The notes beneath the pieces were generated by a model. It was not told the origin of the DNA. It made no database searches and saw only the letters and a list, made by a program, of their open reading frames with translations. Positions 15,201 through 42,859 of a DNA stretch of 54,305 nt are shown here, one piece after another. Every line of letters begins with the position of its first letter. Within the stretch, counting starts at the first letter, position 1. Origin of the DNA: Actinomycetes bacterium (GTDB lineage: Bacteria > Armatimonadota > SYMT01); contig JANPLG010000164.1 in assembly GCA_031426395.1 (NCBI GenBank), positions 1 to 54,305 of the forward strand. The letters run 5' to 3'. Both the position numbers and the translations under genes were made by a program.

Positions 15201-16596
15201 TGAACCCGGCTCTGGACCACCCAGGGCGGTGCCCTGGGCTGGCGTATTGCGCCCCTTCAGGGCTGGGGTGTGATGGGGCCTCGGTCCCAGGGCACCGCCC
15301 TCGGGCTCTCGCTGTGGCGCCTCACCGCTCTGGACAGCAGAGGCGATCCCCGCCTATGCCTTGGGCTCGGTTGTCGTCGAGCCGTACAATCAAGCATTCC
15401 CTGTCCTCAACCAGTAGCGATGCCGCAATCTCTCTCCCGACTCCACATCCACCTGATTTTCAGCACCAAGCATCGGGAGCCTTGGATCACCGATGCTGTG
15501 CGGCCTGAGTTGCACGCCTACATGGCGCAGATTCTGAAGGCCCATCGGTGCACGCCAGTGCTGATCAACTCCGTGGAGGACCACGTCCACCTTCTCATCG
15601 ACCTCGCCCGCACCGTCACGGTCAGCAAGGTCGTCGAGGATCTGAAGGTCGACTCCTCGAAATGGATCAAGACCCAGGGACCGGAGTTCGCCGGTTTCGC
15701 ATGGCAGGGTGGATATGGGGCGTTTGCCATCTCAGAGGTTCATTTGAATCGCGTGGGCACCTACATCGCCAGGCAGCAGGAGCACCACCGCACGGAATCG
15801 TTCCAGGACGAATGCCGCGCCCTGTTTCAGTCGGAGGGGATCGCCTACGACGAGCGGTACGTCTGGGACTGAACCCGGCTCTCGAACACCCAGGACGGTG
15901 CCCTGGGCTGGCGTAGTACGCCCCTTCAGGGCTGGACGGTACCGGACAACCGAGCACCCAGGGCGGTGCCCTGGGCTGGCATAGTACGCCCCTTCAGGGC
16001 TGGGCATTACGTATGGCTTGAACGCACAGCGCTGGCGTATTGCGCCCGTTTGGGGCTGACCGACTGGTACGCCCGGTCATGATCTCAATACCCCGTCGTT
16101 CCGCACCGATGCCTCCACCGGTCGCCTTGCAACGAATGGTACCTACCCGTATACCGTGTGAACCCCAGCCCCAACGGGGCGAGATAAGCTAGCCCAGGGC
16201 ATCGCCCTGGGACCTGTCGTCTCGTACAACCCACAGCCCTGAAGGGGCGCAATACGCTAGCCCAGGGCACCGCCCTGGGACTCGCCCCCAGAGCCCCGCC
16301 CCGGGATGCCACCACCCCTCTGCATCGCAGACGCGCTGCCTCTGAGGGGCCAGGGCATTGCCATCCATCAACGCTACGCCTGCCCCTGAACCCGGCTCTC
16401 GACCACCCAGGGCGATGCCCTGGGCTGCCTTATCGCGCCCCTCCAGGGCTGGGGTTATGGTGAGGCCTCGGTCCCAGGGCTCTGCCCTGGGCTGCCTTAT
16501 TGCGCCCCTTCAGGGCTGGACGGTTCCTATGGGCCGGACGCACGGCGTCACAGCCCCACCAGGACGTACTACGATAGCCCAGGGCACCGCCCTGGG
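15201..16596. repeat. REP-like palindromic array (about 10 copies, both orientations) flanking the Y1 transposase
   Basis: Unit CCCAGGGC-n3/4-GCCCTGGGCT-n-CGCCCCTTCAGGGCT at 15220, 15286, 15889, 15957, 16031 (partial), 16406 and 16473; inverted copies at 16167, 16235 and 16552. Confidence 0.9.
15420..15872 (+). mobile_element. tnpA: IS200/IS605-family Y1 HUH transposase (REP-associated, RAYT-like)
   Basis: MPQSLSRLHIHLIFSTKHR, DHVHLL (HUH), FAWQGGYGAF and catalytic Y in YIARQQEHH; no tnpB nearby. Confidence 0.92.
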
Positions 16597-18688
16597 GACA
16601 TGGGCGAACGCTAGGCCAGGGCATACGTCCGGACAAGAACCACATCCCAGACGCTCTGCCTCTGAGGGGCCAACTGAGGCCTCCCGAGGAGGCAGAGGTG
16701 GACGGCACGAGATCGAGGCGACTGCGGAAGAGACGGAGTTTGGGCGGTGGCTGGAGCAGGTGAGCCCCGGCATGGCCTGGAACCCCCGGCACCTGCGCTC
16801 CCTGCAGGCGGAGTTGGAGCGCATCTGGCTGGGACAGACTGACCGGCTGATGCTCTTCCTGCCGCCCCGCAACGGCAAGAGCGAGCTGTGCACCGTCCGC
16901 TTTCCGCTCTACCTGCTGGAGCGGGAGGCGGATCGGCGCATCGTGGTCGGCGCGTACAACCAGTCGCTGGCGGAACGGCTCAGCCCTCGCAGCCGCCGCC
17001 TGGCGCGGGAACTGGAGCGGGAAGGCCGGCTGGCCCTCTCCGCAGAGCGCAGGACCGCCGCCGATTGGGAGACCGCCGCCGGGGGTGGAATTCGGGCGGT
17101 CGGCGTGGGGAGCGGCGTCACCGGCCTGGGCGCGGACCTGATCCTGATCGACGACCCGGTCAAGAGCCGGGAGGAGGCGGAGAGCCGCGCCTACCGGGAC
17201 CGCGTCTGGGACTGGTACCGGGATGACCTGTACACCCGCCTGGAGCCGGGCGGCGCCATCGTCCTGATCATGACCCGCTGGCATGAAGACGACCTCGCCG
17301 GCCGCATCCTCACCAGCGAGGACGCCGGAACCTGGCGCGTGGTGCGGCTGCCGGCGATAGCGGAGGGTTCGTGCGTTGGGGCGTCCCGGTGCGTGGGGTC
17401 GGGCCTCGTGCAGGCTGAATGGGAGAATGGGAGAGTGGGGGAATGGGAGAGGTCTCGTGCGGAGGCGGCGCTTGGGGCCGGTGCGGTTCGCCTCGATCTT
17501 GATGAAAGGGAGAATGGGAGAATGGGGGAATGGGAGACCCTGGGGGCGGAGACGGCTCCCACTCTTGCATTCGCCGACTCCCCCATCCAGAACGGCAAGG
17601 TTGGACAGCGATTGGGGCAGGACCCGCCAGAGCCAGCGGCACCCGTAACGGCACCCAACTCCCCCATTCTCCCACTCACCCATTCCCCCATTCAAAAGGG
17701 ACGCGAGGAGCAGCCTCACGGTCTCGGATTCTCAACGATCGGAGCCGACTGGCGGACCGCAGGCGAAGCGCTCTGGCCGGAGCGGTTTCCGGTCACGGAA
17801 CTGGAGCGGACGCGGCGGGTGCTGGGGGAGCGGAGCTTCTCGGCGCTCTACCAGGGGCGGCCGCAGCCGGCGGAGGGCGGGCTTTTCCGGCGGGAGTGGT
17901 TCCGCGTGGTGGACCGGGTGCCGGCAGGGCTGCGGTGGGTCCGCTTCTGGGACACTGCGGCCAAGGCGACGGAGCGCAGCGACTACTGGGCCGGGGTGCT
18001 GGCGGCGCGGTCGGCGGATGGGAACTGGTACCTGCGGGGGATGGTCCGCGGCCGGTGGGAGTACCCGCAGGCCAAGCAGGTGGTGCTGCAGACCGCCGAG
18101 GCGGATGGGCCAGGGGTGGTGGCCGGTATCGAGGACTCCGCCAACGGGTCGGCGCTGATCCAGGACCTGCGGCGGGATCCACGCGGGGCGCGGTTTCCGT
18201 GGGTGCCGGTGCGCGTCTCGGCGGAGAAGGCGGTCCGCGCCGGGACCTGGGCCAGCCTGGCCGAGGGCGGACTGGTCCACCTGGAGGCCGGCCCCTGGAC
18301 GGCGGCGTTCCTGGACGAGGTCGAGAGCTTCCCCTGGGGCAAGCATGACGACCAGGTCGACGCTGTCAGCGGCGCGGTAGAGTTGGTGCTGCGGCAGGGA
18401 ACGGTGCACCGGCCAAGGTCACTCGTCGGACCGCCGCGTAGCGCCTGGCTGCCGGGATGGGTCATCCCCCCATGCCTTCGCGGTATCGGTCGATGGATCT
18501 CGGTGCGGTGCGGTGATCTCATTCGCGAAACGCTGCCACACCGGGCGCCCCGGAGAAGGCGGCATCCGGTCTCGGCCTGGGTGCGCCGCGACGTTGCGAA
18601 GCGACCCGCAACAGTAGGGGGCGCCACTGTGAGCAAAGAGCGTTCCGAAGACTGCACTAGGCTACGGTCGATTGCTTGCCGATTATAA
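16529..18688 (+). CDS. Phage terminase large subunit-like protein (start uncertain; in-frame insertion)
   Basis: Walker A LPPRNGKSE, Walker B LILIDDP, IMTRWHEDDLAG; nuclease motifs RFWDTA, GIED and FPWGKHDDQVDA. Confidence 0.85.
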   Translation: MGRTHGVTAPPGRTTIAQGTALGTWANARPGHTSGQEPHPRRSASEGPTEASRGGRGGRHEIEATAEETEFGRWLEQVSPGMAWNPRHLRSLQAELERIWLGQTDRLMLFLPPRNGKSELCTVRFPLYLLEREADRRIVVGAYNQSLAERLSPRSRRLARELEREGRLALSAERRTAADWETAAGGGIRAVGVGSGVTGLGADLILIDDPVKSREEAESRAYRDRVWDWYRDDLYTRLEPGGAIVLIMTRWHEDDLAGRILTSEDAGTWRVVRLPAIAEGSCVGASRCVGSGLVQAEWENGRVGEWERSRAEAALGAGAVRLDLDERENGRMGEWETLGAETAPTLAFADSPIQNGKVGQRLGQDPPEPAAPVTAPNSPILPLTHSPIQKGREEQPHGLGFSTIGADWRTAGEALWPERFPVTELERTRRVLGERSFSALYQGRPQPAEGGLFRREWFRVVDRVPAGLRWVRFWDTAAKATERSDYWAGVLAARSADGNWYLRGMVRGRWEYPQAKQVVLQTAEADGPGVVAGIEDSANGSALIQDLRRDPRGARFPWVPVRVSAEKAVRAGTWASLAEGGLVHLEAGPWTAAFLDEVESFPWGKHDDQVDAVSGAVELVLRQGTVHRPRSLVGPPRSAWLPGWVIPPCLRGIGRWISVRCGDLIRETLPHRAPRRRRHPVSAWVRRDVAKRPATVGGATVSKERSEDCTRLRSIACRL

Positions 18689-18917
18689 CTCCAGTGGTTG
18701 CTTGCCCCAGATGACGCCGATCGATGCGTGACTCCCCCCTTGGCTTCCTCCAGGGATGATGGGATTTGCATCTTTTGGGTGAGGATGCGGGCCGTGGCTG
18801 CCACTATCTAGCAAGCGAGCTTTCCTCCGGATCGGGAGGAGTGCTCCAGTGTATTACCCGTGGTCGTCAGGCCGACGAAGTCGGTACGGCTCCGCCTTCC
18901 GAAGAGAACGCTCGTCC

Positions 18918-19394
18918 ATGTCCTCAAACTTGCCCCCGCGGGCACGACACTCCGACCTTATTGTCCGAGAGATCGGTGACGAGACCCTGGTCTACGACCT
19001 GCGCACGCACCACGCCCACGCACTGAACGTTTCCGCATCGCTCATCTGGCGCTCTTGCGATGGATCGCTTGCGGAGAGCGGGCTCGCGCAACGGCTCAGC
19101 GAGGGCACCGGGCTGCCCGCCGATTCCGAGATGGTGCAGCTCGCGCTACGGCAATTGAGCGAAGCGGATCTGCTTGAAGCTCCGGCCGGCGGTGAAAGTC
19201 GCATCTCCAGGCGAGAGCTGGCGCAGCGCCTTCAACTGGTTGGAGCGCTCGCCCTCCTGGTCCCGGCGGTTGAGTCAGTGATCGCTCCGCGCGCCGCCGA
19301 TGCCGCTTCCGCGTGCTCTGGCAAAGGCGAGTCGTGCATCACCCGGCCATGCTGCCCGCCGATGATCTGCAACTTCGCGGGGATCTGCGAGTAG
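18918..19394 (+). CDS. PqqD/RRE-domain protein fused to an SRR-hydrophobic segment and a 6-Cys knottin-like tail
   Basis: REIGDETLVYD..AHALN..A..IW..CDG..LRQLSEADLL (PqqD pattern); ISRRELAQ..LALLVPAVESVIAP..AAS; CSGKGESCITRPCCPPMICNFAGICE. Confidence 0.85.
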   Translation: MSSNLPPRARHSDLIVREIGDETLVYDLRTHHAHALNVSASLIWRSCDGSLAESGLAQRLSEGTGLPADSEMVQLALRQLSEADLLEAPAGGESRISRRELAQRLQLVGALALLVPAVESVIAPRAADAASACSGKGESCITRPCCPPMICNFAGICE

Positions 19395-19529
19395 CCGTTC
19401 CGGCCTATCGTCCCTGATTGGCGACCGTCGCGATGGCGCCTTCCCGATCCGCATTCCGCCGTCGCCGCTCTCAGGAGCCGCCCGATGAACGGTCCCATCA
19501 TGCTCTTCTTGTCCACAAGTAAAGTCTCA

Positions 19530-22500
19530 ATGCGCCGCTCTCGCTTGGTGGCTTCGGTTCTTCCGCTTGCAGCGGTGGTCTTCTGCGCCACAGCCGCGTC
19601 CGCCGTGACTCCCACCGGCGTCTATGTTCCCACCGCCCTCACCTTCACCCGACCTGCCGGTGGAAACAGTGTGGGCCGAACCGGCTCCGCTGCTCAGCCG
19701 TTCCGCGACGACGTGATACTGGACACCGTGACCTTTCCGGGTAACGTCGGCTTCCCAGGGAACGCGGTTTACACTGTCGCCTCCTCGCAGGCGCGCGCGA
19801 TGCAGGCGGTGCGGATCACCAACAATGGCACCTACATCGGGGCAAACACAAACGCGGAATTCGGCGCGCTCGACAACGGCGGGGACGGCAATGCGACACC
19901 GTTCGTCAAGGCGGGAATAGTCGCGGAAGGAGCGCCACTCCCCCTCGCAACGCAGGAATCGACCAATCCCGCGATCCAGCAACCCGCGATCCGTCAGGCC
20001 TTCGGCAGCTTATCGCTCGTGGAAGGCATCGACGGAGAGGGTGGCCCTTTCCAATTGACCTTCATTTTCCAGAGCAGTGTCTCGGACAGCCACCCCCTGG
20101 TCGATGATCCTCGGCCCGAGGTGTTGATGTTCGAGCGCGGGTTGAACTCCAACTGGCAGGTTGAGGCGATTGTCGGCGGGACCATCGACAGCCCCATCTT
20201 CGCGCCGGTTCCGGTGGTCCTGGATGTCACCCGGAACATTGCGGGAACGGCCAACGACACCGACCCCTGGCCCAGCGGAATCTTCATCGAGACCTCGGAG
20301 ATCACTCCCAGCAACCAGCAGCTCGGCGCGGTGGCGATCGACCTGAATGCCTTCTGGGGCGGCGGTGTGGCAGGTACCATCTACGGCCTTCGGGTCACAA
20401 CGGTTGACAATACGGGACCGGATCTCTACGGGATCTTTGGATTGGCGCGGGACCCGGTGATCCAGTTCGGACCCATCCCGCCGGAGTTGGAGGATCCCTC
20501 ATCCGCTGTGCGCTTCGAGGAGTTCGCGGCGCATCCTAGCCCCGCCGGGAATGTCCTGAAGTGGAAGACCGCTTGGGAAACGGACAATCTCGGCTTCAAC
20601 ATCTATCAGGAGGATGGCAGTGGGAGCAGCGCGCGGAAGCGGCTCAACCCATCGCTGATTGCTGGCTCGGCGCTGGTGGCGGGTGCGGGGAGGGAACTGC
20701 GCAGCGGCTACGAGTACTCCTGGCTGGACCGGAACGGCGGCGGCGGAGCGTACTGGCTGGAAGACGTCGACCTTCGCGGCGCGCGCGCCTGGCACGGCCC
20801 GTTCTATGCCGATGCAAGTCCCAATGAGGACGAAGCCGCCGGGGACAACTCGCCACTGCTGGCGGAACTGAACAGCGGCGAAGTCGAGTCCGGGGTCCGC
20901 ACGGGATCGGTTCTCCGCGCAATGCCGCTTCCCGTGGCTCGCGGTGGCGCAAGGCAGCGCGATGCACGGAACGATGTCCAGCTTCGGCTGGCAGGGCTGA
21001 ATGCCCTCAAGCTTTCCGTCCGGGAGGAAGGCTGGTACCGGGTCACCGGCAAGGAGTTGCTGGAGGCCGGCCTGAGTCCGCGGACTCAGGCCGCGCGGCT
21101 CCGCCTCTATGCGGATGGACGTGAAGTTCCGATCAGCGTCAGGACTGCCGTCAATAACCGCATTGCTGCGAAGGACACGCTGGAGTTCTACGGCCTCGGC
21201 CTCGACACGCCCTCTACGGATACGCGGGTCTACTGGCTGGTGGTCGGCGAACCCGGAGGCCTACGGATCGCATCCCAGACCAGCGCTGCAGGTATCGCGC
21301 CCGCTGCCAGCTTCACCGAAACGGTGGAGCGCGTGGAGCACCGGATCTACTTCCCCTCGGCACTGAATGGCGAGGCGGACAACTTCTTCGGACCCGTGGT
21401 CACGGGCACCCCGGTGGAGCAGCCGCTGACGGTGCCGAACCCGGTCGGGACGCAAGGTGGCCAGGCGCTCCTCTCTGTATCGCTGCAGGGCGCGACCAAT
21501 CTGCCGACCCCCGGTCCCGACCACCGGGTTCGAGTGAGCTTCAACGGCACGGTGGTAGGTGAGGTCGCCTTCGACGGGAAGACCGTTGGCAGCGGCGAGT
21601 TCCCGGTGGCCGCCAGCAGCGTGGTGAGTGGGACAAACCAGGTCGTGCTCACGGCACTGGCGGGTGGCGAGGATGTCTCGCTGGTTCGCCGGGTCGCCCT
21701 GACCCATCAGCGCGGGTTCGCGGCGGCGGGCAACCGGCTCCGGTTGACCGCACAGGCTGGGCAGCCGGTGAGCATCTCCGGCTTCAGCAAGAGCAATGTC
21801 CGCGTCGTGGACGTGACCGATCCGTTCGCTCCCATTGGGGTTGCCGGGCAGGTTGCGGCGGTGAAAGGTGGGTTCGCCTTTGCCGGCGTCGTTCCGTCCG
21901 GCCTCGCTGGCACCCGTGTGCTCCTCGCGTTTGCGGACTCGGCCATTCTTGAGCCGTACCGGGTGGCGGTGAACACGCCGTCCGCCTGGACGACATCCAC
22001 CGCTGGCGCCGACCTGGTATGCGTTGGCCCCGCAGATCTCCTGAAATCGGCGCATCCCCTCGTCCAGCATCGGCGACTCCAGGGCATGACGGTCGCTTCG
22101 GTCAACGTGGAAGACGTCTTCGACGAATTGAGCTTTGGAAGCAAGTCGCCTGCCGCGCTGAAGGCGTTCCTCGCTGCCGCCGGCCAGCGATGGGTCAAGA
22201 AGCCGCGGTTCGCGCTGCTGGTCGGCGATGCCACCTATGACCCGCGCAACTACCTGGGCCGTGGCGCGAACGACCGGGTGCCCACCGCCTTCGTCCCGAC
22301 CTCCTACCTGGAAACTGCCTCCGACGATTGGTTCGCGGACTTCAACGAGGACGGCGTGCCGGAGATCGCCGTGGGCCGGTTGCCGGTGAGCACCGCGAAG
22401 TCAGCGGCAACGGTGGCCAAAAAGATCGTGGGCTATGACAAGCCGGTCGGAAGCGTGAGCTGGAAGAAGCAACTGCTGCTGGTGAGCGGCAAGGATACGC

Positions 22501-23033
22501 CGGACTACCCGTTCACGGCGGCGCTCCGCTCCCTGCGCACGCAAATGCCGGCAGGGTACGGCGTCACCGAGGCCCGCTACCAGGACCAGGGGCTATCCGC
22601 CGCTCGAACGAGCTTCTTCAACGCGATCAAAGCCGGCGCGCTGGTGGTCAACTACCAGGGTCACGGTCGGCAGAACGGATGGTCGGACGACCTGCTGAAG
22701 GCCGAGGACATCGCGACGCTTCGGAACGAGACGCGGCTGCCGCTGTTCGTGAGCATGACCTGCTTCAACGGCACCCTGCAGGATCCGACGATCCTCTGCC
22801 TCGGAACGGTGCTATTGCGCGCGCCCAAGGGTGGGGCGGTGGCCGCGTGGGCCTCGTCCGGGCTAACGGTGCCGTCGGAGCAGGCGAGCATGAACCAGGC
22901 GCTCTACCGGGAGTTGTTGGGCACGAAGAAGACGCTGGGTGAGGCGATCATGGGCGCGAAGAGCGCGGCGCTGGACCCGGACGTTCGCCGCACCTGGATC
23001 CTCTTCGGTGATCCTTCCATGACGCTGCGCTAA
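19530..23033 (+). CDS. Secreted multidomain C25 (gingipain-family) cysteine peptidase
   Basis: Signal peptide; LLVGDATYDPRNY, SDDWF, AVGRLP; catalytic dyad VNYQGHG and SMTCFNG; C-terminal LFGDP. Confidence 0.9.
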   Translation: MRRSRLVASVLPLAAVVFCATAASAVTPTGVYVPTALTFTRPAGGNSVGRTGSAAQPFRDDVILDTVTFPGNVGFPGNAVYTVASSQARAMQAVRITNNGTYIGANTNAEFGALDNGGDGNATPFVKAGIVAEGAPLPLATQESTNPAIQQPAIRQAFGSLSLVEGIDGEGGPFQLTFIFQSSVSDSHPLVDDPRPEVLMFERGLNSNWQVEAIVGGTIDSPIFAPVPVVLDVTRNIAGTANDTDPWPSGIFIETSEITPSNQQLGAVAIDLNAFWGGGVAGTIYGLRVTTVDNTGPDLYGIFGLARDPVIQFGPIPPELEDPSSAVRFEEFAAHPSPAGNVLKWKTAWETDNLGFNIYQEDGSGSSARKRLNPSLIAGSALVAGAGRELRSGYEYSWLDRNGGGGAYWLEDVDLRGARAWHGPFYADASPNEDEAAGDNSPLLAELNSGEVESGVRTGSVLRAMPLPVARGGARQRDARNDVQLRLAGLNALKLSVREEGWYRVTGKELLEAGLSPRTQAARLRLYADGREVPISVRTAVNNRIAAKDTLEFYGLGLDTPSTDTRVYWLVVGEPGGLRIASQTSAAGIAPAASFTETVERVEHRIYFPSALNGEADNFFGPVVTGTPVEQPLTVPNPVGTQGGQALLSVSLQGATNLPTPGPDHRVRVSFNGTVVGEVAFDGKTVGSGEFPVAASSVVSGTNQVVLTALAGGEDVSLVRRVALTHQRGFAAAGNRLRLTAQAGQPVSISGFSKSNVRVVDVTDPFAPIGVAGQVAAVKGGFAFAGVVPSGLAGTRVLLAFADSAILEPYRVAVNTPSAWTTSTAGADLVCVGPADLLKSAHPLVQHRRLQGMTVASVNVEDVFDELSFGSKSPAALKAFLAAAGQRWVKKPRFALLVGDATYDPRNYLGRGANDRVPTAFVPTSYLETASDDWFADFNEDGVPEIAVGRLPVSTAKSAATVAKKIVGYDKPVGSVSWKKQLLLVSGKDTPDYPFTAALRSLRTQMPAGYGVTEARYQDQGLSAARTSFFNAIKAGALVVNYQGHGRQNGWSDDLLKAEDIATLRNETRLPLFVSMTCFNGTLQDPTILCLGTVLLRAPKGGAVAAWASSGLTVPSEQASMNQALYRELLGTKKTLGEAIMGAKSAALDPDVRRTWILFGDPSMTLR

Positions 23034-23036
23034 CCG

Positions 23037-24116
23037 ATGGTAGCGCGTCCCGGAAACACTCGGGAACGTATGGGCGCCGGGATCGCGGAGTTGCTCCGTG
23101 GTTCCTGGCGCCCATTACCGTTCCAAACGGAAGGCGAAGCTGAATCGTGGCGGATGCTTCTGCCGGAGCTCACGCCGCCCCTGCTGGCGACCGGCTGCGG
23201 ACCGCTGGCATGGCGCCGCCTGTGGGAAACGGATCTTGCGGCAACGGCGGAGGCCGGCGAACTCCGCCAGGCCTACCGGATGCACGCGTTGCGTTCGGCG
23301 GCGCAGGAAGGCGAGCTGGCGCGGGTTGCGGGGGCGCTTTCGGAGGCGGGGGTGGAGCCGCTCCTACTGAAGGGCTGGGGGGTTGCCCAGCACTACGCGG
23401 AGCCGCACCTACGACCCTACGGCGACCTGGACTTTTTGGTGACCTCCGAGCTCTCGGAAACAGCGCGTCGGACAGTCGACGGGGTCGCCCGACTTCGTTG
23501 CCCGGTGGAGTTGCATCAGCGGTTCAACTTTCCCAGCGACCGCTCCCACGCGGAGTTGCTGGGTCGTTCGAGTACGGTTGCTTGCGGCGCAGTGACGCTG
23601 CGCATTCCCGCGCCGGAAGACCACTTGCGGCTCCTGGCACTCCACATGCTCTCCCACGGCGCGTGGCGGCCGCTCTGGCTCTGCGACATCGCGGCGCTGC
23701 TCGAAGGCGCGGGCGAGGCATTCGATTGGGACCTCTGCTTGTCCGGTGATGCGAGGCTCACCGGCTGGGTGGAGGCATCGGTGCTGCTTGCGCGGGACCT
23801 GCTGGGGCTTGAACGGGGCCGGTTGCCGAAGCGGCTGGCATCGCGAGCTTTGCCCTCATGGGTGGCCATCTCCGTGCTCCGTCAATGGGGGCGCGGAACG
23901 GGCTCCAGTACCCGCGAGTCGCTTCGCCTTGGCGATCTCGTGCGGCGACCACGCGATGTGGTGGATGAGCTTGCGCTACGGCTGCGCAATCCAATTGAGG
24001 CCACCGTGGAACGGCGACTTGCCTTCGACCGGTCGTCGCCGCTGTCCGCGGTGGTGGCGGCGACGGTGGTGCGGGGACTGTCGTGGTTGTGTGACGGAAC
24101 TCAGATTGCAAATTGA
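23037..24116 (+). CDS. Nucleotidyltransferase family protein (NTP_transf_5-like)
   Basis: LLLKG, Y..P.LRPYGDLDFLV, VELH, PAPEDHL..LALH and WLCDI. Confidence 0.88.
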   Translation: MVARPGNTRERMGAGIAELLRGSWRPLPFQTEGEAESWRMLLPELTPPLLATGCGPLAWRRLWETDLAATAEAGELRQAYRMHALRSAAQEGELARVAGALSEAGVEPLLLKGWGVAQHYAEPHLRPYGDLDFLVTSELSETARRTVDGVARLRCPVELHQRFNFPSDRSHAELLGRSSTVACGAVTLRIPAPEDHLRLLALHMLSHGAWRPLWLCDIAALLEGAGEAFDWDLCLSGDARLTGWVEASVLLARDLLGLERGRLPKRLASRALPSWVAISVLRQWGRGTGSSTRESLRLGDLVRRPRDVVDELALRLRNPIEATVERRLAFDRSSPLSAVVAATVVRGLSWLCDGTQIAN

Positions 24117-33912: not shown

Positions 33913-36456
33913 ATGAAGAAACTCCGCTTCCCACTCCTCGCACCTTTGCCCCTGGTGATTGCCGCAGCCGTTGGAACGGTCGGAGTCGGGACTATGGCGG
34001 TTGGTTGGGCGGCGGACAAAAGAGCTGCCGACCTCACCAAGCTGCCCCCGGCGGCGACGGCGAAGGTCGACTACCTCCGTGACATCGAGCCGCTCTTCAA
34101 GTCCCGCTGCATGGCCTGTCACGGTGCCACGAAGGCGCTCGGTGGGCTGCGGCTGCATCTCCCGGCGCAGATCCTGGAAGGCGGTGACGGCGGCATCGTG
34201 CTAACCCCCGGAAAGAGCGCGGAGAGCCGCCTGGTCCATTACATTGCCGGGGCGCTGGAGGGCAAAGTGATGCCTCCCGCCGGCCCGCGCCTCACCGCGC
34301 AGGAGGTCGGCCTGGTCCGTGCCTGGATCGACCAGGGCGCGGAGCTTCCCAAGCGAGAGGGCGCGGCGGCCTCTCCTGCATCGATTCATTGGGCGTTCCA
34401 ACCGATCTGCAAACCTGCCGTCCCGCGGGTGAAGCAGGCCGCCTGGGTCCGTAACCCGATTGATGCCTTCATCCTGGCAAGGCTGGAAGCGAAGGGGCTG
34501 AAGCCCGCACAGCTGGCGGACCCGATCACCCAGCTTCGGCGCGTTAGCCTCGACCTCACCGGGCTGCCGCCCGCCCCAGAGGAGGTTGACACCTTCCTCA
34601 AGGACCCGTCACCGGACGCCTTCGAGCGGGCAGTGGACCGGCTCCTCACCAGCCCCCACTATGGGGAGCGGTGGGGGAGGCAGTGGCTCGATCTGGCCCG
34701 GTACGCGGACAGCAACGGCTATTCGATTGATGGCGCGCGCCAGATGTGGCTCTACCGGGACTGGGTCATCCAGGCTCTCAACGCAGACCTCCCCTTCGAC
34801 CGCTTCACCATCGAGCAGCTTGCCGGCGACCTCCTCCCCAACCCTTCCCGTGAGCAGCTCATTGCCACCGGCTTCCATCGCAATACCTTGGTCAACGAGG
34901 AAGGTGGGACGGATGCAGAGCAGTTCCGCATCGAGGCGGTGGGGGATCGGGTCGATACCACCGGCGCCGTCTGGATGGGGCTGACGGTCGGCTGCGCTAA
35001 GTGCCACACGCACAAGTACGATCCGCTCACGCAGCGCGAGTACTACCAGCTCTTCGCCTTCTTCAATAGCCAGGATGAGCCGAACCTCAGCTTCCCCTCA
35101 CCGGAGCAATCGCGCCGGCTGGCGGAGTTGAAGCGCCAGCTTTCCGAGGCCCAGAAGGCACTGGCGGAGTATGACCGGCTCCACACCATTGCCAAGGGGG
35201 AGTCCCGTAAGGACGATCCAGCGCGGAAGCTGCTGGCCGACCGGGTGGCAGCTCTGCAGAAGGACGACCGGGAGTTCGCCAGGAGCGTCAACACTGCGAT
35301 GGTGCTTCGCGAGCGGCCCGAACCGCGCCCCACGCACCTCATGATCCGTGGCGACTTCCTACGCAAGGGTCCCCTCGTCCGCCCCAATGTCCCTGCGGTG
35401 CTGCCGCCGCTCCCGCCCTCAGGCACGGACGGTCATCCCACGCGCCTCGACCTTGCCCGCTGGCTGGTGAGCGAGAAAAACCCGCTCACGCCCCGCGTCA
35501 CCGTGAACCGCGTCTGGATGCAGTACTTCGGGCAGGGGCTGGTGGAAACGGAGAACGACTTCGGCGTCCAGGGCAGCCTCCCCACCCATCCGGAACTCCT
35601 CGACTACCTCGCCGCAACCTTTGCGGGAGTTCCCGGTTCCCGGTTTCCGGTTTCCGGTTCAGCCGTTCCCATCACCGGCAACAAGCAACAGGGAACAGGA
35701 AACAGGGAACAGGGAACCCCTTGGAGCCTCAAGGGGCTCCATCGGCTGATCGTTACCTCGGCCACCTATCGGCAGAGCAGCAAGCACCGGCCGGAACTGA
35801 AGGCTGTCGATCCCCGCAACCTGCTCCTCGCGAAACAGAATCGGCTGCGGCTGGACGCGGAACTCATCCGTGACACGGCGCTAGCGGCCAGCGGGCTGCT
35901 TTCTCGCAAGATCGGGGGGCCGAGCGTCTTCCCGCCCCATCCTCCCGGCACGGAGGCCCTCACGCAGGTCAAGCGCGTCTGGACCCCCAGCAAGGGCGAG
36001 GACCGCTACCGCCGGGGCCTCTACACTTGGCACTGGCGCAGCAACCCTTTCCCGCTCTTCGTCACCTTCGACGCCCCCAACGGTAACGTCACCTGCACGC
36101 GACGCCTCAGGTCCAACACGCCCAATCAGGCGCTGATGCTCGCCAATGACGAGATGTTTGTCGAGATGGCGCAGTCCCTGGGGGCGCGTGCCCTCCGCGA
36201 GGGACCCTCTGACGACGCCGGCCGCATCGCCTGGATGTTCCGCCGCTGCGTTGGGCGACAACCCGAGCCAGGGGAGGCAGCGCGCCTGGGGCAGTTCCTA
36301 CGTTCGCAGTTCGCCGCCTTCCAGGCCGAACCCACGGAAGCCGAGAAGGCCGCCCCTCGTGACCGGCCCGCCGGTGTCGATGCTCCCACCGGCGCATCCT
36401 GGAGCGCACTGGCCCGCGTCCTCCTCAACCTGGACGAGTTCATCACCCGTGAGTAA
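33913..36456 (+). CDS. Planctomycete cytochrome c + DUF1549 (PSCyt2) + DUF1553 (PSD1) protein
   Basis: CMACH and CAKCH heme motifs; NPIDAFI, YGERWGRQWLDLARYADSNG, HPELLDYLA and LNLDEFITRE. Confidence 0.95.
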   Translation: MKKLRFPLLAPLPLVIAAAVGTVGVGTMAVGWAADKRAADLTKLPPAATAKVDYLRDIEPLFKSRCMACHGATKALGGLRLHLPAQILEGGDGGIVLTPGKSAESRLVHYIAGALEGKVMPPAGPRLTAQEVGLVRAWIDQGAELPKREGAAASPASIHWAFQPICKPAVPRVKQAAWVRNPIDAFILARLEAKGLKPAQLADPITQLRRVSLDLTGLPPAPEEVDTFLKDPSPDAFERAVDRLLTSPHYGERWGRQWLDLARYADSNGYSIDGARQMWLYRDWVIQALNADLPFDRFTIEQLAGDLLPNPSREQLIATGFHRNTLVNEEGGTDAEQFRIEAVGDRVDTTGAVWMGLTVGCAKCHTHKYDPLTQREYYQLFAFFNSQDEPNLSFPSPEQSRRLAELKRQLSEAQKALAEYDRLHTIAKGESRKDDPARKLLADRVAALQKDDREFARSVNTAMVLRERPEPRPTHLMIRGDFLRKGPLVRPNVPAVLPPLPPSGTDGHPTRLDLARWLVSEKNPLTPRVTVNRVWMQYFGQGLVETENDFGVQGSLPTHPELLDYLAATFAGVPGSRFPVSGSAVPITGNKQQGTGNREQGTPWSLKGLHRLIVTSATYRQSSKHRPELKAVDPRNLLLAKQNRLRLDAELIRDTALAASGLLSRKIGGPSVFPPHPPGTEALTQVKRVWTPSKGEDRYRRGLYTWHWRSNPFPLFVTFDAPNGNVTCTRRLRSNTPNQALMLANDEMFVEMAQSLGARALREGPSDDAGRIAWMFRRCVGRQPEPGEAARLGQFLRSQFAAFQAEPTEAEKAAPRDRPAGVDAPTGASWSALARVLLNLDEFITRE

Positions 36457-36509
36457 GGTAATCCCGTCGCCCGTCGGGGAGATGTCGCCCCACCTGGAGG
36501 CTTGATCCA

Positions 36510-37100
36510 ATGTCGATAGTCGCCGAACGCCCAGGTACTGCCTATGAAGTCCGGGAACCCAGTCGCGAGGGTGCATGGGAGCTGATTGACGGAGTGTTCC
36601 AGGAGAAACCGATGGGTGCGGAGTCCGATTGGGTTGCTTCCGAGATCAGTTTCAACCTTCGACGTCAGTTGGGTCACGACGCGGATGGGTGGGTGATCAG
36701 GGAAACCACCTTCCAGTGCTTCCCCCAAGAACCGGGACGCATCCGACGACCGGACGTGGCCTACCTGCGGCGAGCGCGAACGAAGGATGGACGCTTGTCC
36801 CGCGGGCACGAAAAAACCGCACCAAGCCTCGTCGTGGAGGTCGTTTCTCCGAATGATCTGGCGGAAGAGATTGAGGGGCGCATTCACGACTTCTTGCAAG
36901 CTGGCACCGACCTCGCTTGGGTGGTCTATCCGTTGACCCGTACCGTCCACGTCTTCCGGGCAGACGGCTCCGCCCAGCGGCTCACCGGCGAGCAGGCTCT
37001 CACCGGCGAGGGGGTCCTTCCAGACTTCCACTGCTCCATCGCTGCATTCTTCGAAACCGACTACGAGGCTGAAGTTGACGCCAGGACCAGCACGCTATGA
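36510..37100 (+). CDS. Uma2-family (PD-(D/E)xK) endonuclease-like protein
   Basis: ELIDG, RRPDVAY, APSLVVEVVSPND, WVVYP..RTVHVFR and VLPDF. Confidence 0.92.
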   Translation: MSIVAERPGTAYEVREPSREGAWELIDGVFQEKPMGAESDWVASEISFNLRRQLGHDADGWVIRETTFQCFPQEPGRIRRPDVAYLRRARTKDGRLSRGHEKTAPSLVVEVVSPNDLAEEIEGRIHDFLQAGTDLAWVVYPLTRTVHVFRADGSAQRLTGEQALTGEGVLPDFHCSIAAFFETDYEAEVDARTSTL

Positions 37101-38533
37101 GTTTCGATCCCGAAAGGCTGCACCTTCGCACGCGGCGTCATTTCTTGGAGGATTGCCGCGTCGGCCTAGGGTCGATGGCACTTGCCTCGATGCTGGGGGA
37201 AGACGCGGGCGCGGCGGCCAAGCCAAAGTCGGCGTCGGATCGATCACAGCTGCCGCAGTTCCCGGCGCGAGCCAAGCGGGTCATCTTCCTTCACATGGCG
37301 GGCGGCCCCAGCCAGATCGACCTCTTCGACCCGAAGCCGAAGCTGAACGAGCTCAGCGGTCAGGTGCCGCCCAAGGAGTTCCTGGAAGGGAAGCGGTTCG
37401 CGTTCCTGAAGCCGGACGCCCGGCTCCTGGGCAGTCCGCGCACCTTCCAGCGCCATGGGCGGAGTGGCGCGGTGCTGAGCGACCTCTTCCCGCACCTCGG
37501 CACGGTGGCGGACGACATCCTCATCGTGCGGAGCCTCACCACGGATGTCTTCAACCACGGCCCGGCCAAGCTCTTCATGCAGACCGGGTCACCGCAGCCC
37601 GGCCGCCCGGCCATCGGCGCGTGGCTCACCTACGGACTCGGCAGCGAGAGCCGCGACCTCCCCGGCTTCGTGGTGCTGCAGAGCGGTCCACGTGGACCCC
37701 GTGCGGGGGCAGTCCTCTGGAGCAGCGGCTTCCTTCCCTCCAACTTCCAGGGCGTGCCCTTCCTCCCCGGCCCGCAGCCCATTGTCGACCTGGCCAGTCC
37801 TCCTGGCTACGACCACCACCGTCAGGGCGAGTTCTTCAGCGCCGTCCGGGACCTGAACGCGACCCGCCTCCAGGCCACCGGCGACCCCGAGATCGCGACA
37901 CGCCTCACGCAGTACGAGATGGCCTACCGGATGCAGACCAGCGCCCCGGAGTTGATGGACATCACGAAGGAAGATCCGCGCACCCTCGCGATGTACGGGG
38001 CCACGCCGGGGAAGCCCTCCTTCGCCAACAACTGCCTTCTGGCGCGGCGGCTTGTGGAGCGGGGAACCCGCTTCGTCCAGCTTTTCCACACTGATTGGGA
38101 CCACCACGGCGGCGCGAACATGGATCTGGAGACGCACTTTCCCCGCATCTGCCGGGAGGTCGACCAGCCCTGCGCCGCCCTCGTGCGGGACCTGAAGCAG
38201 CGCGGCCTTCTGGAAGACACCATCGTCCTGTGGGGCGGAGAGTTCGGCCGCACCCCGATGGGGGAGGTACGGGAGACCACCGGCCGGGACCACCACATTG
38301 AGGCGTTCACAATGTGGATGACCGGCGGCGGCTTCCAGCGCGGGCTCACTGTCGGAGAGACGGATGAGCTGGGCTACACCGTCGTCCAGGACAAGATGCA
38401 TGTCCACGACCTGCACGCGACCCTGCTGCATCTTCTCGGCATTGAGCACACGAAGCTGACCTACCGCTTCCAAGGCCGCGACTTCCGCCTCACGGACGTC
38501 TTCGGGAACGTCCAGCAGAAGCTGATCGCCTGA
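37097..38533 (+). CDS. DUF1501 domain protein
   Basis: TRRHFL, AKRVIFLHMAGGPSQIDLFDPKP, WDHH, WGGEFGRTP and GRDFRLTDV. Confidence 0.95.
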   Translation: MSFDPERLHLRTRRHFLEDCRVGLGSMALASMLGEDAGAAAKPKSASDRSQLPQFPARAKRVIFLHMAGGPSQIDLFDPKPKLNELSGQVPPKEFLEGKRFAFLKPDARLLGSPRTFQRHGRSGAVLSDLFPHLGTVADDILIVRSLTTDVFNHGPAKLFMQTGSPQPGRPAIGAWLTYGLGSESRDLPGFVVLQSGPRGPRAGAVLWSSGFLPSNFQGVPFLPGPQPIVDLASPPGYDHHRQGEFFSAVRDLNATRLQATGDPEIATRLTQYEMAYRMQTSAPELMDITKEDPRTLAMYGATPGKPSFANNCLLARRLVERGTRFVQLFHTDWDHHGGANMDLETHFPRICREVDQPCAALVRDLKQRGLLEDTIVLWGGEFGRTPMGEVRETTGRDHHIEAFTMWMTGGGFQRGLTVGETDELGYTVVQDKMHVHDLHATLLHLLGIEHTKLTYRFQGRDFRLTDVFGNVQQKLIA

Positions 38534-41832: not shown

Positions 41833-42681
41833 TTAGTTCTCCCGGAACCACGCCTGCGCGTTGGGCGAAAGGGACTTGCGGTAGGCCACGGCGGACCCAG
41901 GTAGATGCCAGGCGTCGGGTCCCCGGAACCACTTGGCGTGGCCGTCCGCCAGGAGGTAAACTCCACCGCCGTTGTGCTTGAAGCGGGCCGCGCAGTAGGC
42001 CGCCGCGCTTCCCTGGTTGACCGGGACCGCCGTCATTCCCTCTTCGCTTCCGGTGCAATTGCTTGTCATGTCGTCCCCACCTACCGCCGGCCGCGTCCCG
42101 AGTCCGTGGGCAAGCAAGACTACCGAGGCCGGGGCTGACACCGAGGCCAGGCTGGCTGGCTGGGGTCCGGGAAACCACGGATTGCCGGGCAGCAGGCTGC
42201 GGTTGGCCATCGGTACTAGCCAGCCGTTGGCTACATAGCTCATCGCGGATGTCACCTGGGCTGCCGGGAAGGCGGGAACCGCCGGACTGCCAGTGCGCAT
42301 CGGCACGGAAGTGTCGGAAAAGCTGGGGCACTGGTAGAAGGTGCGCTGCGTTCCCGGCGTGAAGCCGAACCCCGCGGCGCCCACCTTGACGTACGGCTCC
42401 AGCAGATCATAGAAGGTGACCTGCCCGGCACCCAGATTTGACGCAGCCCAGGGAAAGCTCTCATCGTAGTCCTGGGAATACATCCCAAAGGCGATGCCAA
42501 CCTGCCGCATATTGCTGGTGCACGAGGCCTTGCGAGCCGCCGACCGTGCCTGGGCGAAGACCGGGAAGAGGATCGCGGCCAGGATGGCGATGATAGCGAT
42601 CACCACGAGCAGCTCAATCAGGGTGAAGCCCCGGCTGCGGATGGCCCGTCCGGAGGTGAGTTTCAGGTAGAGGGACGACAT
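41833..42681 (-). CDS. Prepilin-type N-terminal cleavage/methylation protein (DUF1559-like, H-X9-DG)
   Basis: [44 protein letters not shown] and [16 protein letters not shown]. Confidence 0.95.
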
Positions 42682-42859
42682 GACGAGTTCACTCCGGGAC
42701 GAAGAAGCCACAGCGCTCCTCGGGTCTGAAGCTACTCTACCAGCGGACGAACCTCCTCACCGTTAAGACCGGTTAAGGATAGTTCCGCAGAGGACTTTCA
42801 CGCCATAAACCACCCGCGATGGCTCCTAACCCCCGCATCCGGGGACGCAGGCGGGAGCT

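Follow-up and report, generated by a model that had tools for sequence, protein, structure and literature searches.

Contig JANPLG010000164.1 of assembly GCA_031426395.1, a bacterium placed in Armatimonadota, is 54,305 nucleotides (nt) long and is called the window here. Three co-oriented genes in it encode a 158-aa protein with a PqqD-like domain, a C25 cysteine peptidase and a PF14907 nucleotidyltransferase (Table 1). On balance, we think it probable that the 158-aa protein is the precursor of a small secreted peptide that brings its own leader, is rich in disulfides, resembles both the knottins and the peptides that are made by the ribosome and modified after translation (RiPPs), and is tailored before export. 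We set out below the conservation and gene partnerships that lead us to this reading, together with the other explanations that we weighed.

The 158-aa protein joins three parts in one chain. Its N-terminal part matched the Pfam PqqD model PF05402 at 24.3 bits (gathering threshold, 23.4; E 3.9e-5), as did all 42 members of the precursor subfamily (best E 8.2e-11). Against the PDB, this domain, which we take as a candidate RiPP recognition element (RRE), gave weak matches to PqqD structures 3g2b and 5sxy and to the lasso-peptide B1 chaperone 9x90 (E 0.17-0.8). Behind it, we read by eye the sequence I-S97-R98-R99-E-L-A-Q-R-L, a hydrophobic stretch from L105 to P124 (with P116 and P124) and an AxA motif at A127-D128-A129. 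The chain then ends in a core whose cysteines, C133, C140, C145, C146, C151 and C157, are spaced C-x6-C-x4-CC-x4-C-x5-C and followed by E158; the core measures 25 residues between its outermost cysteines, both included, or 26 with the terminal Glu. The C25 gene begins 90 nt downstream of the precursor gene, and 3 nt separate its stop codon from the nucleotidyltransferase. A Pfam scan of 43 open reading frames (ORFs) of the window gave no match to lasso cyclases, B2 proteases or radical SAM enzymes. A preliminary description of this stretch had reported the fusion of RRE, internal Tat-like signal and Cys core, a secreted C25 peptidase with intact His and Cys, an NTP_transf_5 gene after a 3-nt gap and no lasso cyclase or radical SAM gene. 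All of these observations hold, and both downstream ORFs are intact. Logan contigs of one run (X1) span 17208-21089 and 22080-23638 with 0 differences, bridging the gene junctions; this run is probably the source sample, and the agreement hence checks the assembler, not the biology. It is the one DNA run listed as carrying the stretch, and no RNA run is listed.

How widespread is this protein? A word-index search returned five relatives only. Their profile, run against 1.84 billion cluster representatives (50% identity), matched 10,258 representatives at E<=1e-3, of which 5,838 reach E<=1e-10 and 1,591 reach E<=1e-30, and nearly all of the best 150 matches cover most of the profile length. The source names of these proteins are "hypothetical protein" or "PqqD." Scanning species-representative genomes gave 75 loci, all titled as metagenome-assembled genomes (MAGs), from at least eight phylum-level groups; counted by title, they fall in Acidobacteriota (48), Actinomycetota (10), Gemmatimonadota (8), Myxococcota or "delta proteobacterium" (4), Chloroflexota (2), Armatimonadota (1), Binatia (1) and Planctomycetota (1). 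No family relative was found on viral contigs, so nothing points to a phage-borne module despite the terminase gene adjacent to the precursor in the window. Nor did a literature search, made mostly outside subscription journals and in main texts, turn up an account of an exported Cys-rich precursor that is fused to PqqD and accompanied by a kinase and a PF14907 enzyme; orphan clusters of this kind may already stand in the co-occurrence tables of studies that mined genomes for lasso peptides or RREs. The family is very large and apparently undescribed, and the bacteria that carry its gene modules are from soil and sediment and mostly uncultured.

The three-part architecture recurs across the family. 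We examined 248 sequences (153 cluster representatives and 95 ORFs from the loci, without removal of duplicates between the two sets), and 244 of them carry RR followed by an uncharged stretch, a recurrence that exceeds chance. Mean pairwise identity, taken over 600 pairs from 169 sequences, was 47% in the N-domain, 46.5% in the signal and 26% in the tail, falling to 18% in the tail when Cys was left out. Precursor copies occur in tandem, up to four per locus, and when paralogues of one locus were paired, conservation was lower in the tail than in the N-domain for 22 of 24 pairs; at locus L011, paralogues are 100% identical in the N-domain and in the signal and 47% identical in the tail. The preliminary description had proposed looking for a conserved leader with a hypervariable core, and this is what the family displays. 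It is the pattern of RiPP precursors and of venom peptides. Cysteine counts point the same way as a disulfide-bonded product would: among 244 tails, 223 have an even number, 12 an odd number and 9 none, such that 223 of the 235 Cys-bearing tails are even. The commonest framework is the C-C-CC-C-C of the window (61/244), with a modal spacing of 6, 5, 3 and 4. A different kind of tail was seen in the related genome G005 (L106 8027-8491 and L109 7772-8689), where tails with few or no Cys near the cleavage site are rich in Lys and Gly (e.g., ASGSNGKKKGHTDKGKSDGKGKGPKK), which argues that the leader is also used for another kind of cargo.

One cultured bacterium carries the module. In Gemmatirosa kalamazoonensis KBS708 (Gemmatimonadota), plasmid 1 (NZ_CP007129.1, about 1,039,400-1,043,700; L120) encodes the kinase discussed below (E 6e-43), a precursor with PqqD domain, signal and six Cys, a membrane protein that by eye is thioredoxin-like with a CxxC motif and, on the opposite strand, a nucleotidyltransferase. 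The PLSDB record of this plasmid is without annotation. The presence of the module in this strain makes the question testable at the bench.

To describe the neighbours of the precursor, all ORFs of the 75 loci were clustered without prior labels; the resulting counts are lower bounds, as many loci end at contig edges. The commonest partner, found at 40 loci, is an HprK-like P-loop kinase of ~275 aa that is absent from the window and from the preliminary description. It had no Pfam match. Three of these partner kinases scored 58-68 bits against NCBIfam TIGR04352 (HprK-related kinase A; curated cut-off, 200) and are thus related to that family but not members of it, and the kinase alignment retains the P-loop (G128, G133 and K134) and an S150-D151-E152 motif. 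A PF14907 nucleotidyltransferase is present at 39 loci (33, plus 6 of a second type), which bears out the earlier view of this enzyme as a companion gene: it is a conserved partner. Genes for a Wzz/GNVR/BY-kinase polysaccharide co-polymerase and for a C25 peptidase are each found at 14 loci, with two of the latter truncated by contig ends. The usual order is kinase, one to four precursor genes and nucleotidyltransferase on a single strand, and the order precursor-C25-nucleotidyltransferase of the window is unique among the 76 loci compared. The nucleotidyltransferase of the window scored 103.2 bits against PF14907 (threshold, 31.2; E 2.3e-29). Residues G113, R126, D130, D132, H160, E194, D195, H203 and D217 are invariant in 33 homologues; at position 158 the window enzyme has E where 32 of the 33 have D. 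By eye, neither this enzyme nor the partner kinases bear an export signal. Hence, both enzymes would be able to reach the core only before export. An apparent fusion of kinase and nucleotidyltransferase in L039, L051 and L076 was rejected, since BLAST finds nothing but the kinase part in that reading frame and the ORF calls are over-extended. Six loci from Pyrinomonadaceae and related MAGs (L019, L027, L030, L043, L045 and L049) hold two to four precursors at a spacing of ~2 kb, and neither a kinase nor a nucleotidyltransferase was seen inside 8 kb; between these spaced copies lies, where seen, a conserved ~430-aa protein without a Pfam or NCBIfam match (e.g., L019 8515-9804, minus strand).

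What might a kinase and a nucleotidyltransferase do to a peptide? The only studied precedent comes from lasso peptides. In the case of pseudomycoidin, the HprK-type kinase PsmK attaches a phosphate, on which the uncharacterised NTP transferase PsmN then puts a hexose (PMC6993621). The lasso tailoring set (B1 RRE, HprK-type PadeK/PsmK and PsmN, for paeninodin and pseudomycoidin) shares with our module three genetically linked protein types, cytoplasmic enzymes and a ribosomal peptide. In the module kinase, a P-loop is combined with an acidic SDE motif, and the module nucleotidyltransferase has a DxD motif like the D134/D136 described for PsmN in PMC6993621. The module differs in that its RRE is fused to the substrate, in that the substrate has an internal export signal and a disulfide-rich core, and in that a C-terminal Ser acceptor is not conserved. 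We found no lasso cyclase or B2 protease in the 43 scanned ORFs of the window, nor in 16 representatives drawn from 12 neighbour clusters (out of the 30 that recur most often at the 75 loci), when searched against Pfam. The preliminary description had suggested that the peptide is possibly nucleotidylated. Nothing beyond the family name backs this, and the precedent just cited is phosphorylation followed by hexose addition.

We then asked where the kinase is in the genome to which the window belongs (G000; 6.16 Mb), which we compared within a set of 41 related genomes. It is there, as a single copy on another contig (C487), with 45% identity to the L006 kinase (E 3e-73) and with all invariant columns of kinase alignment A3. 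No precursor or nucleotidyltransferase was found beside it; a 124-aa ORF considered as a precursor at this site is the antisense shadow of a thioredoxin gene. The sister genome G001 likewise has an intact, single-copy and unlinked kinase, and its nucleotidyltransferase, C25 and precursor genes are clustered in another order. We found no synteny of the orphan kinase between the two genomes. That both keep an intact, single-copy, unlinked kinase argues for a kinase acting in trans. Across the related genomes, the kinase (E<=1e-91) is present in 8 of 41 (G000-G006 and G038), the precursor strongly in 7 (G000, G001, G002, G004, G005, G006 and G038) and the nucleotidyltransferase (E<=1e-25) in 7 (G000, G001, G002, G003, G005, G006 and G038), with none of the three in the other 33 at the thresholds used. 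These genomes are not independent and represent about two lineages.

Perhaps the three genes of the window came to lie side by side by accident, through the mobile elements nearby, and the precursor is a decaying orphan? The region immediately upstream holds an IS200-type transposase, accompanied by REP-like repeats, and a terminase gene that stands alone; the kinase is missing at the locus and the gene order has no counterpart among the loci compared. However, three intact ORFs with conserved key residues, separated by gaps of 90 and 3 nt, are not what decay would leave; the same three families cluster in G001 and G038, in other orders, and the kinase has been retained in the genome. We consider such an accident extremely improbable. 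As to the trio that the preliminary description had proposed, its clustering in G001 and G038 stands, but the trio is not conserved as such, since C25 accompanies the precursor at only 14 of the 75 loci.

The same genome has a second module, on C182 at 55000-61100 (L119 4073-6736, minus strand), that encodes, in this order, an HprK-like kinase scoring 40 bits against TIGR04352, a homologue of archaeal-type signal peptidase I and a PF14907 nucleotidyltransferase (149.6 bits). It is not closely related in sequence, lies downstream of a 986-aa DUF11-repeat protein and has no PqqD gene that we could see; a 109-aa ORF at this locus is not PqqD-like by eye. The dedicated signal peptidase hints that pairs of kinase and nucleotidyltransferase generally serve exported substrates.

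The internal signal of the precursor resembles those of the twin-arginine translocation (Tat) pathway. Anchored on RR in 230 family members, the motif has S/T at -1 in 181, R/K at +5 in 179 and G at +8 in 153, counts that agree with the twin-arginine consensus. R98, R99, A127 and A129 are invariant in family alignment A1. The h-region, in which Ala, Gly, Ser and Thr are frequent, includes a conserved Pro, and a Pro stands at about -6 of the AxA site; AxA lies upstream of the first Cys in 185 of 236 sequences, the first Cys mostly follows 1-3 residues past it, and the median length after AxA is 38 residues. The window protein has the S/T-R-R-x-F-L-K-like motif (with Q in place of K), the h-region and AxA, and TatC is encoded in this genome. 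On these features, export may depend on Tat and be followed by cleavage by signal peptidase. The S/T-R-R-x-h-h-K/R motif, mildly hydrophobic h-region and AxA site are those of Tat signal peptides, and a peptide-binding domain tied to the signal recalls the Tat proofreading chaperones, which are of the TorD/DmsD type. In contrast to known Tat substrates, the signal of the precursor lies ~100 residues from the N terminus, behind a folded domain of the same chain, and its cargo is a peptide of 26-40 residues and not a cofactor enzyme.

Could the signal remain uncleaved? The protein would then be a bitopic membrane protein held by a signal-anchor, with a cytoplasmic PqqD domain that serves the kinase and the nucleotidyltransferase as adaptor or regulator in envelope or exopolysaccharide synthesis and a small, variable Cys-rich ectodomain. 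The Wzz/GNVR/BY-kinase genes that adjoin 14 of the 75 loci, the glycosyltransferases that recur nearby and a C25 N terminus that faintly recalls surface proteins dependent on exosortase (NF041929; score, 65.8 bits; cut-off, 75) would fit this. However, an AxA motif with Pro at about -6, placed shortly before the first Cys in most of the family, is the pattern of a cleaved signal, and the conserved Pro and Ala/Gly/Ser/Thr-rich composition of the h-region also speak against an anchor. Moreover, short, hypervariable and tandem-duplicated tails would be unusual for a sensor or an anchor, and polysaccharide genes are absent from the window locus, whose ORFs were scanned against Pfam. We therefore regard a bitopic protein as unlikely. 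A ToxR-like membrane-bound transcription factor was considered as well and dropped: the N-domain is acidic by eye and the tails are hypervariable.

Alternatively, the peptide might be exported without modification. The PqqD domain would bind the twin-arginine signal of its own chain as a built-in Tat proofreading chaperone and time its export, and the enzymes would act elsewhere. RRE domains bind extended peptide segments (RRE-Finder paper, PMC7470986), and no conserved acceptor Ser/Thr can be assigned: an S/T before the first Cys occurs in no more than 131 of 230 sequences. This explanation leaves aside the tight co-occurrence of kinase, nucleotidyltransferase and precursor, both as neighbours and across genomes, and the precursor is the obvious local substrate for two enzymes that apparently lack export signals. 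Hence, we find an unmodified peptide quite unlikely, and we favour a precursor that is tailored in the cytoplasm.

Is the exported core a knottin? The window core has the six cysteines, the C-C-CC-C-C order and the short loops of the inhibitor cystine knot (ICK), and its loop lengths fall in the usual ICK range. Searched alone, it gave no Pfam family at E<=10 and weak PDB matches to LITX (E 0.019), to asteropsins E, F and G (E 0.035-0.06) and to LaIT1. The cores of three relatives matched the Omega-toxin, Conotoxin and Toxin_12 models, all below cut-off. We then built a profile from 23 C-C-CC-C-C tails, taken from the window and the loci, and searched it against the PDB. All of its 27 matches at E<=1 are small disulfide-rich toxins or inhibitors; by name, most are of knottin types from spiders, cone snails, assassin bugs, nemerteans or plants. 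The best was omega-atracotoxin-Hv1 (E 3.5e-4), and the family consensus ATClPSGasC..aqCCSglC resembles PTCIPSGQPC..NCCSQSC of 1axh. The likeness to cystine-knot peptides drawn in the preliminary description is therefore supported at the level of the profile. These data support a knot-like scaffold and prove neither homology nor the disulfide connectivity of a knot, which is I-IV, II-V and III-VI with the third disulfide threading the ring. The framework is that of ICK peptides such as omega-atracotoxin-Hv1, O-superfamily conotoxins, plant knottin inhibitors and asteropsins; the differences are that the source here is bacterial, that a 129-residue leader with a folded domain replaces the eukaryotic signal and propeptide, and that the sequence likeness of the core is marginal and could be convergence.

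The asteropsin matches deserve separate mention. The core at 19305-19391 resembles PDB entries 2m3j, 2n2g, 2n3p and 2lzy (sponge asteropsins E, F and G) over C-x-G-x-G-E-x-C...PCCPP(L/M)xC, and at E 0.035-0.06 this is not significant. The phyla that carry the precursor family overlap those typical of sponge symbionts. A 2026 paper calls the genetic origin of asteropsins unknown, and knottins of a related sponge are reported as host-encoded (PMC13418204). That sponge knottins such as asteropsins are made by symbionts carrying modules of this kind is thus a long shot; with matches below significance and related knottins encoded by the host, we did not adopt the link and keep it as a lead only.

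The C25 peptidase gene, which lies between precursor and nucleotidyltransferase, encodes a protein whose residues 846-1181 matched Pfam Peptidase_C25 at 259.6 bits (E 6.9e-77). Its N terminus, MRRSRLVASVLPLAAVVFCATAASA, is signal peptide-like by eye, and the N-terminal region is weakly XDP2-like. When the protein is aligned with gingipain R (1cvr), His1060 falls on His211 and Cys1093 on Cys244, which we take to be the catalytic pair. The best solved relative is PorU, the sortase of type IX secretion (6za2, E 4.6e-13), and the protein scored 218.2 and 172.4 bits against the PorU models NF033707 and NF052324, below their cut-offs of 420 and 450, over model positions 6-732 of 1095. With PorU and the gingipains it shares the C25 domain, the His/Cys pair and secretion. 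Unlike PorU, it ends at the catalytic domain, without the C-terminal third of the PorU model, and has the XDP2-like N-terminal region; its likely host is not Bacteroidota, and we saw no type IX secretion system context.

This is the sole C25 gene of the genome, as is that of G001, which likewise abuts its precursor; in G038, C25 comes after a kinase-precursor pair. The 14 other loci at which C25 adjoins the precursor are spread across Acidobacteriota, Actinomycetota and Binatia. G004 and G005 have precursors and no C25, and G002 and G006 have C25 genes apart from their precursors. We conclude that the link between C25 and precursor is real but facultative. The preliminary description had offered processing by the peptidase, or its inhibition, as roles for the pair. 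Might the knot-like peptide chiefly inhibit or regulate the adjacent peptidase? Some knottins do inhibit proteases, spinach trypsin inhibitor 3 is among the tail-profile matches, and the only C25 gene of the genome adjoins the precursor. However, no C25 lies within 8 kb at 61 of the 75 loci and none is present in the same-family genomes G004 and G005, so the function of the family cannot depend on C25. To our knowledge, moreover, known knottin inhibitors target serine proteases or carboxypeptidases. An inhibitor of C25 is hence very unlikely to be what the peptide chiefly is. A possible role of C25 at this locus is trimming, release or PorU-like transfer of the exported peptide.

One other described system has a similar composition. 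The NCBIfam "HPr-rel-A system" provided the best NCBIfam matches for the kinase and, at 20.2 bits to TIGR04353, for the PqqD domain, and it has the same gene trio, presumably TIGR04352 kinase A, the TIGR04353 PqqD family peptide chaperone and a nucleotidyltransferase. The scores are far under the cut-offs of 200 and 35, so that the window protein is not a member of TIGR04353; the PqqD protein of our module bears a signal and a Cys-rich tail, and HPr-rel-A is itself uncharacterised. Judged by its sequences, the module is a likeness of lasso-peptide tailoring minus the lasso enzymes, joined to a secreted knottin-like product, and is not a member of the lasso clusters, of HPr-rel-A or of PorU.

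How might such a module work? The sequences show the architecture, its conservation, the partnerships and co-occurrence of the genes, intact active-site residues and even Cys counts; the biochemical steps, the site and kind of modification, Tat dependence, cleavage, the knot fold and the part played by C25 are inferred. We propose that the PqqD/RRE-like domain would remain in the cytoplasm and dock the HprK-like kinase encoded on C487 and the PF14907 nucleotidyltransferase. If the tailoring of lasso peptides is a guide, both enzymes would modify the precursor before export, first by phosphorylation and then by placing a sugar or nucleotide on the phosphate. The internal S-R-R-x-h-h-(K/R) signal would next move the C-terminal part across the membrane, where signal peptidase I may cut behind A127-D128-A129. 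The released core of ~29 residues would oxidise to form three disulfides and probably adopt an ICK-like fold. The secreted PorU/gingipain-like C25 peptidase would be optional and might trim or attach the exported product outside the cytoplasm.

Several observations weigh against this account. The PqqD assignment of the window protein barely clears its threshold, the kinase is not in the window, the window signal carries Q and not K/R at +5, and the Pfam TAT_signal model matches only 2 of 42 subfamily members. The knottin matches are marginal: 10.8 of the 22.9 bits of the best match were flagged as compositional bias, and the window core by itself matches no Pfam family. Nine of 244 tails are free of Cys, and some are Lys-rich. 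The acceptor in lasso peptides is a C-terminal Ser, a residue with which only 9 of 230 family members terminate; in the window peptide, the last residue is Glu. Other candidate acceptors are S97 and an S/T directly preceding the first Cys. At 13 of the 75 loci there is a single precursor only and at others several precursors only, with no enzyme within 8 kb; many loci end at contig edges. Finally, at the 14 loci that adjoin Wzz/BY-kinase polysaccharide genes, an envelope role fits as well as a natural-product role.

In its fullest form our reading would be a new RiPP class. A precursor with its RRE in cis would be phosphorylated in the cytoplasm, then glycosylated or nucleotidylated there, would leave by way of its internal twin-arginine signal and would yield a free cystine-knot peptide of bacterial origin; in the loci that have it, the PorU-like C25 enzyme would trim this peptide or attach it to the surface. 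We offer this complete sequence of events tentatively, as a possibility somewhat less likely than not. If it were true, the RRE would sit on the substrate itself, against the expectation of RREs on enzymes or standing alone, and the export signal would be internal where an N-terminal location is expected. Bacteria would supply knottins on a large and so far overlooked scale, through hypervariable cores in their thousands, although cystine-knot mini-proteins are thought to be essentially eukaryotic, and venom-like diversification of the core would provide a large natural library of stable disulfide-rich scaffolds. The orphan pair of HprK-like kinase and PF14907 enzyme would also gain a function outside lasso clusters.

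Table 1. Positions in the window of the three genes and of the parts of their products
Feature	Position	Strand	Basis
Precursor gene, 158 aa (PqqD/RRE, internal export signal and Cys-rich core in one chain)	18918..19394	+	ORF (ATG at 18918, stop 19392-19394) and translation; PF05402; family profile
PqqD/RRE-like domain, residues 22-85, predicted cytoplasmic	18981..19172	+	PF05402
Internal twin-arginine-type signal, residues 97-129: SRRELAQRL, hydrophobic stretch and A127-D128-A129, putative signal-peptidase I site	19206..19304	+	Sequence; family motif
Predicted mature core, residues 130-158, ASACSGKGESCITRPCCPPMICNFAGICE, six Cys	19305..19391	+	Translation; tail comparisons
Secreted C25 cysteine peptidase, 1182 aa	19485..23033	+	Pfam; 1cvr alignment
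C25 domain	22020-23027	+	
His1060 of C25	22662-22664	+	
Cys1093 of C25	22761-22763	+	
PF14907 (NTP_transf_5) nucleotidyltransferase, 359 aa	23037..24116	+	Pfam

The surroundings of the three genes in the window have features of their own. At 15220-16600 there are at least nine copies, in both orientations, of a GC-rich palindromic unit of 46-50 nt (CCCAGGGCGGTGCCCTGGG...CAGGGCTG), which flank an IS200-type Y1 transposase gene (15270-15872) and look like repetitive extragenic palindromic (REP) elements with a REP-associated tyrosine transposase. Next, at 16358-18688, comes a phage terminase large-subunit gene (phrog_38, E 5e-96), around which we recognised no further phage genes. A block of GGGAGAATGGG-type repeats at ~17400-17700 separates the parts for its N and C domains, and the Logan-contig depth is higher there. 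Further along, families that are typical of Planctomycetota-like genomes, and that hint at the phylum of the host, are represented by a PSCyt1/PSCyt2/PSD1 and DUF1501 gene pair (33913-38533) and a gene for a DUF1559 prepilin-like protein (41833-42711).

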